Assembly: GCA_045837725.1 (NCBI GenBank)
Contig: JBEWZL010000202.1
Coordinates: 1-64,000 of the forward strand
Reading direction: 5' to 3'
DNA: 64,000 nt
Source: Vermamoeba vermiformis
Lineage: Eukaryota
This document shows, in pieces, positions 29,114 to 60,492 of this stretch. Position 1 is the first letter of the stretch; the number at the start of each line of letters is the position of its first letter. Below the pieces are notes generated by a model, which was not told where the DNA came from, ran no database searches, and saw nothing but the letters and a program-made list of their open reading frames with translations. Made by a program: the position numbers and the translations under genes.

Positions 29114-31126
29114 TTAAGCGTGAGTGTCACCCTCAGGCTTGGACGAGTCGTTCGAGCTGAGTTGACCAGTGAGTACAGCTGATTTGTTGGTCGAGCTAAC
29201 GCCGACAGAAGTGTCGCTGCTGTCCTCGCCAGTGCCGAAGTGCACGCGACGCAACTTGGGGAAGAACAAGAAGAAGAGCACACTGCCGCCGATCAACATG
29301 ATTGCAAAGCCAATGATACCAGCCTCAATGCCGACATTGTAGGGGATGATGAGCATGATGGCAATGGCAATCACACCGATGAAGACAGTGTTGTAGATAG
29401 CCCAACCAATCGACTTGGACTCGTTGTAGAGCTTGCGCTTGACGTTCTTGATCTTGTACGAGACCAACACACCGCACACGAGCAAGACTCCCTTGGTGCA
29501 CAAGAAGAGGGCGACGGGCCAGACATCTGTGGATTGGCAAGTCAAGTATTCTTGAGTATCGCTGAGGAAGGTAGAAGTAGTATTGATGACAGGCTTGTAC
29601 GGATCAGCAACAGTCCAAGCGATGAGAATAGCGGATTCGATCAGAGTCATTGGAAGAACTCCCTTGAGAATGAGTTCCATGTTGGTAATCTTGAAGACCT
29701 TGAGTGAGCTCTTGGAGAAGAGACGCCAGATGCGGTAGTTCTTCATAATCAATGCGCTGTAAGTAATGCTGAAACCGAGACCGCCGAGCCAGATGCGCAA
29801 GTTGCACCAATTCGCCGAAGGAACACCCATCCAGAAGAAGACAGAGATGAATGCCAGTGCGCAGCCAAGGATGACAATGCTCAAGAAGACGGGTGACGAG
29901 GCACGGAAGACGATGTGACGTTGCTTGACTTGCACGTCAATGAACACGAGTACGGCGAGGAAGAGGAGGACACTGGCGACTACGATCAGCGCGATACCCA
30001 AGGGCGAGGAGTAGTCCACGAAGAGATCTTGGATGATGTCCGCGCGGGTGTAGTTGCGGATCATATTGAGGCCCGAGAGTGGTGCTTTGAAGGACAAGAT
30101 CTGCGAGAGAGACAAGCACGTGCCGTTGTAGAGGGCAGGAGTGACGCCAGGGAATGTACCACAGAATACTGAGTTTGGATTGGCGACGAGCGAGTTGTAA
30201 GCATTGGTGACTGTGCGACGAACATTATCGGAAGTTTGAGTCGAAAAGTCGCCGAGTGTCAAGAGACCAGTGTCAAATCCGGACCAAGTAGTTTTGTTGG
30301 CGTAAACACTGAAGTTACCGTTGGGAATGGTGTTGACGATACTGAAGAGTGGTGCTCCCCAGTCGTAGATGACGGAAAACATGCTGAGCTCGCCGACCAA
30401 GTAGCGCTGATCAGCAATCTGACCAACGCTCGGGATGGACATGTTGGTCCAAGCTTTAGCAGCATCAGTAGATTGAGAAGAAGCACAATCGACTTGATAA
30501 TCCTCAACCAAAATTCGGGCAACACCGTCTTCGAGCAGCGGGTCGTAGAAAGTGTCGGTGAAAGTCGACAAAACATTCGCATCTGGATTGACTGAGCGCA
30601 CGCCGAGGTAGAATGCATTCTCGTATGACCAGCTGAGCGATTGAAGTCCAATACCAAGAAAAGCGACGTTGTTTGTTTGCGTTTGAATACCGCAAGCAAT
30701 GCCAGCCAAGTAATAGCCTTCCCATGACTTCGGGTCGAGTTTTGCAACATTAGCACGACCAGTTCCAGCGAGGGCGATGATTTTAAAGTTCACGTTTGGG
30801 TAGTCGCCAGTGAACCTATTTTGCTCGTCCGAGTAAATAGAGGAAGTGATGAAAGCCATGTCAAAGTCTTCTGCAACTAGATTCTGCAACTCGGTGTAGA
30901 GGTTGTCAACGGGGAAGGACTGGTACAAACGAGCAGTGACATTGAAGCCTTGCATGAAAAGTTGTCGATCCGCGTATGCTCGTCCAAGCTCCATACGATA
31001 GTTGTAGCCAAAATCATTGATCGGATCTGAAAAGAATGCTGCCATTCTGAATTCAGCCGCCCACGTATTACAAATAATCATGCTAAGCGCAATAGCGCCA
31101 AGAATGAACCTCCGAAGTGTCATCAT
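29114..31126 (-). CDS. class C (GABA-B-like/Grl-type) GPCR with BMP/PnrA-like ectodomain
   Basis: Intronless 670 aa; signal peptide; DFGYNYRMELGR and EGYYLAGIACG (BMP); 7TM_3 motifs SSPVF, KNYRIWRLF, NESKSIGWAIYN, LFFPK. Confidence 0.92.
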   Translation of the reverse strand: MMTLRRFILGAIALSMIICNTWAAEFRMAAFFSDPINDFGYNYRMELGRAYADRQLFMQGFNVTARLYQSFPVDNLYTELQNLVAEDFDMAFITSSIYSDEQNRFTGDYPNVNFKIIALAGTGRANVAKLDPKSWEGYYLAGIACGIQTQTNNVAFLGIGLQSLSWSYENAFYLGVRSVNPDANVLSTFTDTFYDPLLEDGVARILVEDYQVDCASSQSTDAAKAWTNMSIPSVGQIADQRYLVGELSMFSVIYDWGAPLFSIVNTIPNGNFSVYANKTTWSGFDTGLLTLGDFSTQTSDNVRRTVTNAYNSLVANPNSVFCGTFPGVTPALYNGTCLSLSQILSFKAPLSGLNMIRNYTRADIIQDLFVDYSSPLGIALIVVASVLLFLAVLVFIDVQVKQRHIVFRASSPVFLSIVILGCALAFISVFFWMGVPSANWCNLRIWLGGLGFSITYSALIMKNYRIWRLFSKSSLKVFKITNMELILKGVLPMTLIESAILIAWTVADPYKPVINTTSTFLSDTQEYLTCQSTDVWPVALFLCTKGVLLVCGVLVSYKIKNVKRKLYNESKSIGWAIYNTVFIGVIAIAIMLIIPYNVGIEAGIIGFAIMLIGGSVLFFLFFPKLRRVHFGTGEDSSDTSVGVSSTNKSAVLTGQLSSNDSSKPEGDTHA

Positions 31127-32206
31127 GTGTAATAGGTACGACCTCGGATCTGAGTTGTGGTGTTCGAGTGAATACTCGTAAAGTTAATAACAAATAAATT
31201 AAACCAAAACGGTTTTGATTCATGGCCGGTTTGCCAATAAATTTCTCGCCTTTTCACAACTTTAGTAGACAATTATGAATTTTTGACGTTCGCGGAAGAT
31301 CTGATCCGATTAAATTGCGAGAAGACATGCTTAAGCAAATGCCCAAGCTAGGTTAATAGTTTGACTATAATGTCCTATGATTAAAGTTGCAAACTGAACG
31401 CGACAGAAATTATGTGAGCGATTTTGTATTCTAATTATGGCTTGTATGATGAGCGTAACGTAATCATACGCCTGAGCGTACAAAGAATTGAGTGAGATGT
31501 ATACGAATCTATTCAATACCGAAATCACCAAATCTATCTGCAGATGATAACAGTTGCTTTACCTAATAAGTAATTGTAAAAATGTATGGGATATACCTCG
31601 GGCGTATTCTAGAGTTGGCGTCATTATTACGGTGCTCTTAGACCGAATCCAGCATCATCGCACTGACGGAATTAACGACATTCAAAGCCGACCGTTTCAT
31701 ATTTCACTTTGTGAAAGATTTTTTTGTGACCCGTAATTACCCGAACAAAGGACTTTTCAACGCGGCCAAGCGACAGTAACTTGTACATAATAATGTGCAG
31801 ACATACCGCAGCTATGTGATGTGTCATTCGGTTCGGGCGGAACAATAGACGGCTATTTAATTGGTGGATCTCTCACGTGGCGAAATTCACCCTTCTGTTC
31901 AGAATCTGTCAGTTACTGGAGACGAAGGAGATGCAGGTCAGATTGCTACTTACAAGTAAACATATGTATTCTTTCGGTTGGCTTCCGAATTTGCCATTTT
32001 TCAAGCTGAGAACGGTCCCGTCGCACTTGACACTTTCGGTGATTGATGATTAATCATTGATTCATATTTGTATTTCCGTAGTTTGTCGGCTATGACTCAC
32101 TAATACCCCGCTCTTAAGGTGCCTTCAAGTAATCAAGCTGTCGAAAGCTGAAAAAATTATGTACAAAATTATTTATATACCTTTTCGGATATTCCACGAG
32201 GCAGAT

Positions 32207-54438: not shown

Positions 54439-56066
54439 ATGTCTGGTAAGTTATAACGCGTTCGATCGTGACTAACGCTGATCTTGTAATTGAACAAAAA
54501 ATACGATTGTCTTGATATTCCGATATTATAGCATAATAGCACAATATTTTTAACAAAATTTGAATTTACTACGATACGATCTCATCTGGATCGCAGATTA
54601 AAATCGAAAAAAATCAAAAATTAATTTGTAATAATCATTTAACGATTGTAAATAGCCACAAAAAAGAATATTAAGGCTACTCAATCACCCAAGAGCCAAA
54701 AGACCCCTACCAAGCCAAAAGAAAAGACACCGAAAAAAATCGTTCAAGATGCCGAGCCTGAGGTCGATGAAGGCGAACAAATGAATATCGTCAACGACAA
54801 CATTCCTGCCAATGCTGTCCCTCCACAACACTCACTTCGTATTCGCTACAAAAGTCGCAAACTGATCGTGCGTGTCACGCTGCACAAGATCCCTGAAAAG
54901 TGCCTCAATTTTGAGCCGACAGCGACTCATTTCTACTTGGACACATTCAAATTCACCAAGAAGTATTACTTGCAGTACGTATTGAGCGGATCTATATGCA
55001 TAGGACCTTATTTAACAAATTTTCAGTTTCCGTTACCCGCGTGATATCGAAGTGGATGCAGAGAATGTTGACGCGACATTAGGTACGAAATACTAGTACT
55101 AATATAGAGGTGCATGGTATATAATACTAATGCTATTTATCTCCTAGAGTACGGTATTCTCACAGCTATCTTCCCCATCACGCACATTACAGATCTGCAC
55201 GAAGGTGAGGCACCTAAGCCAAAACACAACAACAAGCGCAAACAAGACGATGTATGTATTGATGAAAAGTATATGATAGGGTTATATATTCATCATGATG
55301 TTATTATTAGGCTCAGTTAAAGTCGAAACAAGCAAACAAGAAACAAAAGACCGAGAACGGTGCCGTGACCGAGAAGAGCAACAAAAACAACAAAAAATCA
55401 GCGCAGAATGTCAAAGAAGAAGTGACACCTGTCAAAGAGAACAACGGCAAAGAAACGAAGAAACAGAACAAAACTGTGAAAAAATCAGAAGACGCAATGG
55501 ATCTCGAAGAGTCACACGAGCACACCGAGACTACTGTTAAGAGCAATAAGAAGGCCAATAAGAAACAACAAACTAACGGCGCTGCTAAGAAAACTCAGCC
55601 ACAGAAGACTGTCGATGAAAATGTAAGCGATGACGCCGAAGAACAGCCGCAAGAAAAGAAGAAAAAGCCCAAGAACTTTGTCGTACGTACTGACTTCATA
55701 TTACCAAATAAGGAAATAATTAACTAACGCTATTTGTAGAACGATTCAGTGATGCTCGACATTGCGGATCAGATCAACGACGCCGAGGACAAGAAACGAG
55801 CGAGTAAAATCACCAAAGAAGAGTCCAAACAACAATTCTTCGAGCAACAGGCCAAGAAGAAAGAAGAAAAGAAACAAAAACAAGCCGCGCTGAAGAAACA
55901 AGTGTTGGATCAAGTGATGCACAAGAAGAAGCAAGTGCAGCAAGAGGAAGAAGAGCTCGAGCACAAAGTCGTCACTCGTCGCGTGTCATTCGGCGACAAT
56001 GTCAAGGACAACGAGAAGAAATCGAGCAACGGCAAGGCTGGCGGCAAGAAAAAGTCCTCTAAGTAA
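54439..56066 (+). CDS. Lys-rich protein with HSP20/CS-like domain and C-terminal RVxF motif
   Basis: FRYPRDIEVDAENVDATLEYGILTAIFP (CS/alpha-crystallin-like); K/E-rich tail; RRVSF. Confidence 0.65.
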
Positions 56067-56350
56067 CACAACTAGATCGAGAATTGGAACAAATAAAAAT
56101 TGAAGTTCTCACGGAGGAAATCAGCTTTAATCCGCTGAATGGTCAGTGTCATAGGTAATGAAAAAAACTAGCGAGTCAGCTCATCCGCTCGGAAAATAGG
56201 AATATCTCGATATAGATATTTTGTGCTCGCGAACACACTGACATGGCGGCATCATTCCGAGTTTTCAATCCTGGTCCTTATTATAGCTCAAAAGAGAAAG
56301 TGATTTTAAAATTTACTATTAATACAAGTAGACTAGGCCTATTAATAATT

Positions 56351-56920
56351 CTAGTCAGTCAAGCTCATCGCCTCTTTATAATTGGTTCCAGTTTTCAGCG
56401 CCGTAAATGCACGTGAGTATTTAGAAAAAGTGTAGACGGAGAGTGCAAAACCGTCAGTCAATGCTGCAGTGATTTCTGCGGCTCGTTGTTGCGGAATGAA
56501 CATGCTCGCTGAAAAGCCGTATTCTCCGTCCGACGGATCCATATAGAAGTGGCCGCTAACACGTCAAAGTTAATAATTCATATGGAAAGGTTTAATATAT
56601 GAGCAAACATACAGCTGCAGGCCCCAATTAACCGCGTTGATGAACCTCATGGCATTATCCCGGTGTTTTTCAGCAACTTTATCGCTGGACACCATTCGAA
56701 TTTGTAGAAAATCGTCGTCAGCAGCCAAACACGCCACGCAGTCCTCGAAGGGGATGAATGTTTTGCGCCCTCTTTTCTCGACTCTCAATTTTTTCAACTC
56801 CACAAAGTCATCAATGCACTTCGCCGTTATCTGGGCCTGCTTGTCGTCTTTAGACGCAATGTTTGCCAGCTCTTTGAGCAGCTTGGCCAGCATTTGAGGG
56901 TCAATATCGCCTGAGTTCAT
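56351..56920 (-). CDS. stand-alone YbjN-like domain protein
   Basis: Exons 56920-56613 and 56555-56351; RFINAVNWGLQLGHFYMDPSDGEYGF matches the YbjN N..G.F..D..DGE pattern. Confidence 0.65.
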
Positions 56921-57117
56921 CTTCGGATGTGCTTGGAATAAAAAAGTTTAAGAATTAGCGGCAATTCTCCGCAAAGTCACTTTTAGCGTTTGTGCGCTTG
57001 TTTCTAATTGGTTGAACCAAATTTCTCGTGTTCCAATTGGTCGTCATAGGGAAATAAATCGAAAAAAAAAGAATCAAGGAATAAATCCATTTAGATCTCA
57101 ATACCACAATTCATAAT

Positions 57118-58448
57118 ATGGGCAATAAAATTGCATCTTATGCAGTAGCAGATATTGCAAAAGAATTCAACGTTAAAATTCCTCCTTTGACTTACCCCGA
57201 CAACAACACTGCAAGAACTGAAACCACCATTAGTTCCAATCAATATGCCTGCAGGTTCGTGATATCGTTCAACAACAAGACTCAAGTCCTGCAGTATTTG
57301 TTCTATTACGCGAACAAATTCCCTCAGCAATCTTTTCAGACCTTGGCGAGGTACGTCGCGACCCAAAACTTTAAGCACAAGGTTGGCGTGCTAGAATTCG
57401 ACGAGCGCGACGGAGAACTCGCGTTGAGAATGGCATTTGTCGTCAAAGGATACGGCAGCACCGTCGAGAACCGGACAAGATTCACTAAAAACTTCAAACT
57501 CGGCGTTCAATTCGTCGATGAAGTCTGGCAACAATTGACAAACTTATTTAGCGTAAGTCTATATACCTTGTAATCTACTAATATAAGCAGGTGTTAATAA
57601 CTTGTTAATTAAAGCAAACTGTCGTTACCATTGGTGGCCAGGAATCTCACGACGGTTTAATTCTCGACGAAAGTTCCATCGAAATTGGCGACAAACTCGG
57701 CGAGGGCGGTATGGGCGTGGTATATCATGGCAAGTGGCTCGGCGTCAATGTGGCCATCAAACGCATTCGTCCTCAACTTCAAGGCAGTGAGAGCAGTTTT
57801 TTCAAAGAGATGGATGTCATGCGCAAACTGCGTCATCCGAACACGGTCATATTGTACGGCATTTTGCTCAATCCGCTGACACTCGTGATGCCGCTGTACT
57901 CGAGTGGCAGCTTGGACCAGTTGATCGAGCAAATAACTAATGGCACCAAGGACGTCAACATTCAACGACGTCGCAGCATGTTGCTCGACATGGCACGTGG
58001 CATGGCATACATTCACTCCTTGGAGCTGATTCACGGTGATTTGAAGCCACAAAATGTGTTGATTACCGAGAATGGTAACGTGGTGGTGTCTGACTTCGGC
58101 TTGGCCAAGTTGCGCGTCAAATCGAAAGAGTGGAGTGCGCTGTTGGCTGATCGCAATGCCACGATGCTGCAGTCAGCTGACGGCATCACACCACTCTTCG
58201 CGGCACCAGAGATGTTTGAAGGAAAGCTCTCTCGGCGCTCAGACGTGTACGCCTTTGGATTAATCGCTTGCAACCTGTTGTTCCCTCAGATGGACTTGCT
58301 CTCCGTGCGCAGGAACTTCGTGTTGCCTGCGAATGCAAATCTTAGCGCGGCTTACGTAGACTTGTTAGGCAAGTGCCTCAGCTTCGATGTCAACAACCGA
58401 CCCTACTTTCCGCAGATAGTGAAGGTCTTGGAGGAAAATGAACCTTGA
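57118..58448 (+). CDS. YbjN-like domain + TKL-type protein kinase
   Basis: Exons 57118-57552 and 57615-58448; N-domain QNFKHKVGVLEFDERDGEL; kinase GEGGMG, VAIK, HGDLKPQN, DFG, APE, SDVYAFG. Confidence 0.88.
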
Positions 58449-58671
58449 ATGGGAAGTTAAATTCAATTGTTGTATTTGTAGATTATTATCGATTTTTTAA
58501 ATATTTCAAGATCTAATTTTTGCCGTATTTTTCCTTCAACTTCCTAAATTATAACTAAAATAATTATTGATTTAACAAATTATAATTTTAAGAAAAAAGC
58601 AGTACCGGTTACCTATGGATTCAGATGCTTTGATTTCCACGTGGATAGAACAGTATTTAATCATACAATAA

Positions 58672-58737
58672 GATGACAGCCTTTTGTTCGCTTGGCTTGT
58701 GTTTGCGAGCACGAACGATCAATTACGAGTTTTATTG
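58672..58737 (+). repeat. degenerate direct repeat copy A (hairpin-forming)
   Basis: gatgaca..tgttcgcttgg..cttgtgtttgcgagcacgaacgat aligns with 60538-60617. Confidence 0.7.
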
Positions 58738-58774: not shown

Positions 58775-60492
58775 TTAATAATAACAATGCGGCAGTTTGG
58801 GAATAATGTTCTGTCGGATGTACTCTTGCTCGTCGCTTTGAACCACTAACTTTTGCAACCGAGTAAGCTTTGTTAAACACTCGAGAGACTGCACATTGTT
58901 CGTTGAATATTCTAAGCGAGTTAAATTCAGCAGTGGAGTGAGTTTGCTCCCGTCGCCAGGTTCTGGTTCAGATTTGATGGACAATTGACGTAACTTGGTC
59001 AAACTGGCCAGATCTGTCCAATTTTTGAGTGCTTGGTATGACTTATTATTAGCGATGAATATTAGCCTCGTTAAATTTGTGAGTGTTGATAGGCCATGAA
59101 TTTCTATCATAGGTGGTCGTTTCAATAAACTGCTGATTTCCAATTCGAGCAAGTTTGTCAAATTCATGATGTTAATACGATCATAACATCCACTCATTCG
59201 CAAAACTGTTAATTTTTGTAACGCTTCAAAATCGAGCTGTTCGTTAAAAGTGTTTGATACTGCTTCGATGCTGAGATCTGCCAAATTTGGAAGTCCTGCC
59301 ATCCATTGTGTGGGACACGTGTCATAAAGTAATATCAAGTTCGTTAATGCTGTGAGTGGCACCGGATATGGTTCAATTTTGCTGGTCAAAGTCAGCTTCA
59401 TAGCCACCAAGTTAGTAAACTTAGCAAATTCACTGAAATTATCCTCCGTTGCCTTGATCGTCAACTGCGTAATTTTCTCAGAATTGATCTTCGACAGCAC
59501 TTTCATAGCACAGTTGTCATCTCTGATCATACACGATTCTAACGACTGCATCACATTCATATCAACATCTTCCAAATCTATTCGGTGGCACTTCAATGAC
59601 TTCAACTTTGCTAATTTGCTCGTCACTGTTATCGGTGGATGACTGTCCAGACATATCACCTGCAGTGCGGTCAGACACTTGAATTCCCAATCGCGGTGAA
59701 ACCTACTAGTGCTGAGCTCTTCTAAATATGGCAAAAATGCCGCCATCTCTTTGTCCATCTCTTCGTCAGCTGCGCCTATGGAGCCACGTCTCAGTTTTCG
59801 TAAATTTGGAAGTGCTTGGATTAAATCGGGATCGTAACAACTTGTCGTAAGTGATGTCAATCTCGTGTTGAGCTCAAGTGACTTTCCATCAGTGATGACT
59901 ATAGTATCGCAATTGAGTTTTTCCAAATTGGGAGGAAATCTCGTCGCTATATGTAACGTAGGGGCTGACAGTGAAGTCAGATGTGACAGACTTGCAAGGA
60001 ACGCTTTATCTGCAATTTTGTCTACAACTGTCAATTGTTGAAGATTTGTCAATTGTTTTGGAACTTTAAAGTCTTGAAGGGATAGATCCAACGACGTGAG
60101 TTGAGTCAGATTCTCGATCGCGCGCCTGAGTTGATTTTTGGTGATTAATTTTGCATTCGGAGGCGAATTGCGGTTAAATAAATGCGATGATTTCATAAAT
60201 TTGAGACCAATTGGCTTTTCATATCGACTGAAACATCGAAAAAATTCGTCAGTTTCAGATCCAAGCAAAAGTCCAATGTTAAACTCGTTGTAATTGATAT
60301 ATTGGCTCCAAGTTTGTGATACGAGCCTGATAATGCGTTTGTGATGATCGCTAGTGATAAACGAAAGGATGTGGTGTTGAGTTTCGGGTGGTAGATCTGA
60401 CAATAATAATTTTTCCTAGCCATTAAATCATAGTTAATTGAGAGCGTCTCAAACAATATGTAACATACGTGATGGTTGGCATTATTATCCAT
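58775..60492 (-). CDS. F-box/LRR protein
   Basis: Exon 1 MDNNANHH (60492-60469), exon 2 from 60415; F-box LSDLPPETQHHILSF..IRLVSQTW followed by LxxLTxL repeats. Confidence 0.85.

Follow-up and report, generated by a model that had tools for sequence, protein, structure and literature searches.

YbjN proteins (Pfam family PF10722) and the chaperones of type III secretion systems (T3SS) are described in the available text of PMC9503650 as one superfamily of peptide-binding proteins, the TY-chaperones. There and in PMC5398634, both groups are treated as bacterial. The solved YbjN proteins, namely E. coli YbjN (6vu7), Erwinia AmyR (5fr7), Deinococcus DR1245 (4h5b) and Synechococcus T110839 (2plg), are free-standing bacterial stress or regulatory proteins. 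Here we describe two neighbouring genes at positions 56,351 to 58,448 of a 64,000-nt stretch of DNA from Vermamoeba vermiformis (contig JBEWZL010000202.1, positions 1 to 64,000; the whole stretch is called the window). Gene A encodes a free YbjN-like protein. Gene B, transcribed away from gene A, encodes a YbjN-like domain (the N-domain) that, unlike the solved YbjN proteins, is fused to a protein kinase. The locus is a real and unusual one: a eukaryotic, spliced fusion of YbjN with a tyrosine kinase-like (TKL) kinase, beside a free YbjN-like gene. The parts are known, and it is the combination that is unusual. Among the matches listed in the literature, and with the supplementary alignment of 100 YbjN proteins in the AmyR paper aside, no eukaryotic YbjN-domain protein and no YbjN–kinase fusion was found.

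Proteobacterial YbjN proteins of about 168 aa (PF10722; for example L106, L104, L085 and L114) match both A and the N-domain of B best in sequence. These have 166–168 aa, compared with 170 aa in A, and share with A and B a helix–strand motif (invariant Asn, G-H-F strand, D/E-G turn). They also share with A the C-terminal '...Y..AF......G....EA' helix region. The identity is only 24–28%, and the bacterial genes are intronless and single-domain, unlike the spliced A and the kinase-fused B. On the Pfam YbjN model they score 114–124 bits, versus 14.3 bits for B. The enterobacterial YbjN type showed no detectable sequence signal with A or B. No counterpart of the partners of the solved YbjN proteins, such as DdrB for DR1245, is present here. 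Both bacterial ~168-aa YbjN genes nearest to A adjoin a proC-type (pyrroline-5-carboxylate reductase) gene (2/2 loci; L106:484-1299 and L085:2062-2883). This pairing is possibly conserved.

Class I T3SS chaperones (ExsC, SycE, SicP, CesT) have the alpha-beta3-alpha-beta2-alpha fold that is also predicted for the N-domain of B. They work as dimers, are small and acidic, and bind peptides in extended form; A shares the small size and the acidity. Going by its entry title, SycN-YscB (1xkp) is a case in which two different chains of this fold pair. However, these chaperones serve secretion systems, and the present genes belong to a eukaryote without one. In sequence, no T3SS chaperone comes as close to A and B as YbjN does, and the copy in B is basic and covalently linked to a kinase.

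On the kinase side, the closest described systems are Raf, CTR1 and TAK1 of the TKL group. Raf and CTR1 kinases are activated by dimerisation. All three are among the best solved matches of the B kinase, in which the full set of catalytic motifs is present. B differs in being of the non-RD type (HGD). Its presumed regulatory region is YbjN-like, in place of RBD/C1, EDR1-type or TAB-binding regions.

Gene models, transcription and strain variants

Gene A lies on the minus strand and encodes 170 aa in two exons. Gene B lies on the plus strand and encodes 422 aa, also in two exons. The features are as follows.

56351..56555, minus strand: gene A exon 2, residues 103–170 and the stop codon; GHFYMDPSDGE strand pair and C-terminal helices.
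56556..56612, minus strand: gene A intron, 57 nt, GT..AG, interrupting the conserved motif; joint 'skips 57, CT..AC' in 3 runs.
56613..56920, minus strand: gene A exon 1, residues 1–102 plus 2 bases; spliced contigs join 56613 to 56555. It holds the YbjN-like N-terminal helix, the first strands and helix alpha2, and its last letters are ...NWGLQL.
56921..57117, no strand: spacer between the start codons, 197 nt, presumed to act as a shared bidirectional promoter.
57118..57552, plus strand: gene B exon 1, residues 1–145; MGNKIAS start and the entire YbjN-like domain.
57553..57614, plus strand: gene B intron, 62 nt, GT..AG; joint 'skips 62, GT..AG' in 3 runs.
57615..58448, plus strand: gene B exon 2, residues 146–422 and the stop codon; a linker of ~20 residues and the protein kinase domain.

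Four public RNA runs were compared with positions 56200-58700, three as assembled contigs (X4, X8 and X15) and one as raw reads (X21). Both intron joints were found in the RNA contigs of all three runs that contained the stretch (X4, X8, X15), while X21 had 0 reads on it. As the joints are exact in assembled RNA contigs, genes A and B are transcribed and spliced as modelled. The genes are real ones of a eukaryotic microbe, and both are spliced and expressed. The initial annotation had described two divergent genes about 200 bp apart, one of them a solo domain of ~170 aa; the start codons are 197 nt apart in the gene models confirmed by spliced contigs, and gene A encodes 170 aa.

The contig depth of A and B was 97/69, 11.5/8.6 and 9/8.8 in the three runs, which hints only weakly that they are expressed together. 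Between the two genes, the depth was zero over the bins 56956-57039 in X4, X8 and X15. An inverted-repeat scan of the spacer returned a single 10-nt palindrome (57089-57102), which is uninformative on a shared regulatory site. Read by eye, positions 57000-57040 contain CCAAT-like boxes facing either way, and the 8-nt palindrome CCAATTGG is among them.

The RNA contigs also contained strain variants, of which 38 of 54 variant places were considered here. In gene B, 20 were synonymous and 0 non-synonymous; in gene A, 12 were synonymous and 6 non-synonymous. The variants show purifying selection.

Likeness to YbjN proteins

The initial annotation had noted a common pattern, N...G...D-x2-DGE, in the two genes. 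We found it at residues 84-100 of B and at residues 98-114 of A, the latter spanning the intron of A. In the six-frame translation of the 64-kb window, D-x2-DGE occurred twice, precisely at these two sites; in 200 residue shuffles, the mean number of occurrences was 0.175 and the maximum was 3. The full pattern as first formulated had one match in contiguous frames (that of B, the copy of A being split by its intron) and 0 in the shuffles. Asn84 of B was the sole invariant column in an alignment of the N-domain with 24 YbjN proteins (alignment A1; 25/25 sequences). Its counterpart in A is N98, followed by G104-H-F at equal spacing. Hence, both A and B have the core motif of YbjN, that is, an invariant Asn, a Gly at +6 and a hydrophobic strand in the helix alpha2/loop/strand region.

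According to the available text on the AmyR structure (PMC5398634), the most conserved region of YbjN proteins is a helix, loop and strand that make the hydrophobic dimer interface, and YbjN surfaces differ according to the partner. The motif common to A and B maps to the helix and strand of this interface in the solved YbjN proteins, as the region is named there.

For a comparison at the family level, 201 Pseudomonadota genomes were searched for YbjN, and 99 of them had a match above the Pfam cut-off. The profile was built from 30 loci that were kept, 20 more that were fetched and E. coli YbjN, giving 49 distinct proteins. Spliced A scored 21.2 bits (E 1.3e-8 as a single test, residues 66-168), and the N-domain of B (first 150 residues) scored 19.2 bits (E 5.2e-8). 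The top score of 1000 shuffles was 11.4 bits and the second was 4.9 bits; A and B exceeded all of them by 8-10 bits. When the same profile was run against the 1561 six-frame open reading frames (ORFs) of the window, the top two were B exon 1 (8.6e-5) and A exon 2 (0.31). With a profile of the 168-aa clade alone, A scored 23.9 bits and the N-domain 15.8 bits, the best shuffle being 4.4 bits. Judged by these sequence profiles, the YbjN signal of A and B derives from the ~168-aa proteobacterial clade only.

Further comparisons pointed the same way for A. An hhalign comparison of A with the YbjN family gave a probability of 79.6% (E 1.5e-5) over 114 columns, and these take in the helix motif that the 168-aa clade has at its C-terminus. 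Compared with individual bacterial YbjN proteins, A reached 1.5e-6 with L106 in phmmer and 28% identity over 93 residues in BLASTP. The direct alignment of A with B runs in the same register as their alignment via the family profile. The Pfam YbjN match of B covers profile positions 35-113 of 126. Atlas, a language-model feature search that is independent of our home-built YbjN alignment, gave the N-domain of B a score of 0.93 (211/256 features shared), and 24 of its 30 hits belonged to the YbjN set. For exon 1 of A alone, the Atlas score was ≤0.88 with a recognition of 2038, which is under the useful range, and no family was named.

In a tree, A and the N-domain of B had long branches and came out basal in the 168-aa YbjN clade (support 98/90); the tree does not decide whether they are sisters. 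A jackhmmer search started from E. coli YbjN did not connect the YbjN subfamilies.

A structure of the N-domain was predicted by AlphaFold2 (AF2) with the YbjN family alignment, with a predicted local distance difference test (pLDDT) of 80.4 and a predicted template modelling score (pTM) of 0.73. The elements of the model are H2-16, E35-40, E45-52, E57-64, H70-86, E91-94, E101-108 and H116-144. Their order, H-E-E-E-H-E-E-H, corresponds to the TY-chaperone topology (alpha-beta-beta-beta-alpha-beta-beta-alpha). A structural search with VIA against representatives had DR_1245 (4h5b) at the top (Z 13.3, root-mean-square deviation 2.9, 131 residues), followed by VecA, T110839, AvrPphF ORF1, ExsC and AmyR. 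Of the top 20 rows, 18 were named YbjN-family proteins or T3SS chaperones (Z 8.4-13.3), and all of the Foldseek top ten were such chaperones. The superposition of the model on solved YbjN proteins had Z values of 13.3 (4h5b), 12.6 (2plg) and 11.1 (5fr7). The initial annotation had suggested comparing this fold with YbjN and T3SS chaperones, and these are indeed its nearest structures, with a model that depends on the alignment. A complex prediction for two copies of the N-domain, made without the home-built alignment, had a score of 0.02 and a mark of 0.32, which speaks neither for nor against binding.

The kinship of the domains with YbjN is established by these comparisons, and it is very probable that both A and the N-domain of B are YbjN-fold domains. 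Within the TY-chaperone fold, which unites T3SS chaperones and YbjN, they are probably divergent representatives of the YbjN branch, with the ~168-aa proteobacterial YbjN proteins as their closest kin.

The kinase of gene B and the relation between A and B

In the kinase part of B, PF07714 (6.8e-41, 140.7 bits) and PF00069 (1.9e-38, 132.8 bits) were found above the Pfam cut-offs. The motifs GEGGMG (174-179), VAIK (191-194), HGDLKPQN (285-292), DFG (305-307) and APE (342-344) are present, and so is the conserved Glu, in FFKEMD. As all catalytic motifs were located, the kinase is predicted to be complete. Gly stands in place of Arg before the catalytic Asp (HGD), which makes it a non-RD kinase. 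Among the solved structures that match it best are CTR1, B-Raf and TAK1 (E 1e-27 to 1e-25), and LIMK1 is another. The tyrosine kinases EGFR and Src match with scores equal to those of the TKL kinases, and the assignment to the TKL group is therefore approximate. The apparently active TKL-type kinase of the initial annotation is hence catalytically complete by its motifs and TKL-like, with EGFR and Src scoring alike.

The MGNKIAS start that had been given for B agrees with the gene model. N-myristoylation follows a rule of a Met-Gly start and a small residue at position 6, and the M-G-N-K-I-A-S start may fit this rule. The intron of B falls right after the YbjN-like domain and before the linker and kinase, where a fusion at the level of exons would be expected to leave it. 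The calculated isoelectric point is 5.7 for A versus 9.35 for the N-domain of B.

The best explanation overall, although it falls short of being probable, is a divergent pair of YbjN-fold proteins in which the YbjN-like domain regulates the B kinase and A tunes it. The YbjN-like domain would be the regulatory module of the kinase. Like its relatives in bacteria, it would form pairs by way of helix alpha2 and the strand after it, and it could hold an extended peptide. Two B molecules that pair at the membrane, to which the protein might be anchored, would bring their kinase domains together, as in the dimerisation of the Raf/CTR1 type. Free, acidic A, with the same interface motif, might cover the interface by forming a heterodimer, or compete for the ligand, and the kinase would thus be tuned. 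It is doubtful whether A and B interact at all.

If the domain assignment holds, this would be a eukaryotic signalling kinase under a chaperone-fold, peptide-binding, dimerising module with a free partner adjacent to it. The two-gene system could then be used to read out the binding or dimerisation role of YbjN via kinase activity.

Several results weigh against this reading. The Pfam YbjN score of B (14.3 bits, E 0.051) is below the gathering cut-off of 22 bits, and the exons of A scanned separately with Pfam had no family at E ≤ 1. The initial assignment of a YbjN-like domain to both genes stands with respect to the 49-protein profile, in which both exceed the shuffles; for B, it stays under the Pfam cut-off. 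For the N-domain of B, the hhalign probability was only 17.8% (E 0.0014). The profile of YbjN types other than the 168-aa type, including that of E. coli, had no signal above shuffles. The initial annotation had also proposed a match of the two domains with each other, and this was not found: their direct likeness was not significant (2.2 bits in phmmer, E 0.11 in hhalign). In a PDB sequence search with the N-domain, the best match was MarR (E 0.017), which is similarly weak, and no YbjN chain was returned; we read the MarR match as noise. The single-sequence AF2 model of the N-domain had a pLDDT of 44. The confident model leans on an alignment made of YbjN proteins, so it indicates compatibility with the fold and is no independent proof of it. 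The Foldseek E-values were no better than 1.4e-3, all weaker than 0.001. As for the pair, the depth of assembled contigs measures co-expression poorly, and head-to-head neighbours are frequent in compact genomes. Moreover, no orthologue and no second pair was found, meaning that linkage and function have no comparative support.

The searches for relatives were made with separate parts of the genes. For exon 1 of A, no relative was found in a word-indexed protein collection or in a scan of metagenome contigs. A full HMMER search of 1.84 billion representative proteins with the N-domain of B returned only its own ORF (P0001) and P0002, a 2157-aa repeat protein matched in 7 short stretches, which we take to be a repeat artefact. 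P0002 has a sigma-70-like head and ~20 near-identical repeats of ~70 residues, and its match to the N-domain was 1.4e-13. A word-based protein search with the B kinase returned its own ORF (P0004) and otherwise only kinases at 33-35% identity; none of the three matches in this range had a YbjN-like part. Longer YbjN-containing proteins were sought with alignment A1 and none was found, a kind of negative that the tool itself rates as weak. A metagenome scan with the B kinase had 80 loci at 25-37% identity, and none of the 4101 ORFs of these loci matched the YbjN profile at E ≤ 1. The sole database copies of gene B, P0001 and P0004, are prokaryote-style ORF calls on one public contig of 1421 bp in which the intron is retained. 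Apart from the letters of the read-through intron, P0001 is identical to the window.

The main rival is that A and B are neighbours only, through a local duplication of one gene from the other, and this is quite possible. An ancestral YbjN-like gene, probably acquired long ago from bacteria, would have been duplicated locally in inverted orientation, and one copy would have been fused to a kinase exon. A would then be a small chaperone-like protein acting alone, the N-domain of B would serve the dimerisation or targeting of B itself, and the two proteins would never meet. This agrees with the position of both domains in one YbjN clade of the tree and with the intron of B at the domain boundary, where an exon-level fusion would put it. 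The two domains have diverged past direct recognition and differ strongly in charge, the selection on them differs (20/0 synonymous/non-synonymous variants in B versus 12/6 in A), and the searches with exon 1 of A and with the kinase, metagenomes included, returned no evidence for conserved linkage. Its weak points are that both proteins nevertheless retain the interface motif (N, G at +6, aromatic/aliphatic strand, D-x2-DGE) and that the genes have a common spacer of 197 nt and a similar contig depth in three runs, though neither objection carries much weight. If A and B are merely neighbours, what remains is a domain fusion specific to the lineage, which is of modest interest. The resemblance of the motif could also be due to chance, with one or both domains being lineage-specific orphans of another fold, and this we consider improbable. 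It would fit with the Pfam result (B under the cut-off, the separate exons of A silent), with the low hhalign probability of B and a MarR noise match of similar strength, with the poor single-sequence model, and with a search of 1.84 billion proteins in which the N-domain had no relative besides its own ORF and one repeat artefact. However, A and B beat 1000 shuffles by 8-10 bits and are the top two of 1561 ORFs, the alignment of A extends over 114 columns and takes in the helix motif at the C-terminus, the invariant Asn is kept and the language-model search independently indicates YbjN for B.

An immune-type sensor is very unlikely. In such a sensor, the B domain would bait the chaperone-binding regions of injected bacterial effectors, or other unfolded foreign peptides, and signal via the non-RD kinase, with A as a decoy or adaptor. 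The fold predicted for the N-domain is that of T3SS effector chaperones, and the non-RD (HGD) class of kinases is linked to pattern-recognition receptors in the literature, as far as the available text goes. B also has a myristoylation-type start, and the organism occurs in bacteria-rich soil and root RNA samples. By sequence, however, the domains are nearest to housekeeping-type YbjN beside proC and not to T3SS chaperones, the available text of the AmyR paper saw no evidence of YbjN working with T3SS (PMC5398634), and the selection on B is strongly purifying, not diversifying. The more specific form, in which the protist YbjN-like domain is the 'integrated bait' head of a membrane-anchored non-RD kinase that catches effector chaperone-binding regions or foreign peptides, with A as partner or decoy, is a speculation to which we give hardly any weight. 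If true, it would be a type of innate-immune receptor not described in any eukaryote. YbjN is mainly bacterial (99/201 Pseudomonadota genomes searched), which might suggest bacterial contamination or a very recent bacterial insert. This is already contradicted by the spliced RNA contigs and can practically be dismissed: GT..AG introns of both genes are spliced out in RNA, the fused domain is a eukaryote-type TKL kinase, the guanine-plus-cytosine (GC) content of the region (0.42-0.44) equals that of the surroundings, and the nearest bacterial YbjN is only 28% identical.

Surroundings in the window

Elsewhere in the window, the open frames scanned with Pfam matched WD40, PRP3, GPCR and bZIP families or nothing. 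At 55365-56066 on the plus strand, low-complexity open frames rich in Lys, Glu and Gln adjoin the 3' end of gene A. Directly downstream of gene B, a 542-aa ORF lies on the opposite strand (58775-60403, minus strand). By eye, its start resembles an F-box and it contains many units akin to leucine-rich repeats, and no Pfam family was found in it at E ≤ 0.001. At 29117-31183 on the minus strand, a 689-aa open frame contains the Pfam families Bmp (2e-21) and 7tm_3 (4e-45). This architecture is described for the family-3 GPCRs of the Grl type in Dictyostelium in the available text of PMC1885808, and it is a hint of an amoebozoan type of organism.

The GC content of the window in 2-kb steps ranged from 0.36 to 0.59, with high values over the first 24 kb and low ones at ~48-56 kb. 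Positions 56200-58700 were present in RNA-type runs labelled as several different organisms, and metatranscriptome runs from roots and soil contained small shares of the stretch. It looks as if the organism were a widespread microbe of soil or plants, carried along in the samples of other species. In two of the three runs compared, the strain variants of the stretch were 95-99% alike.

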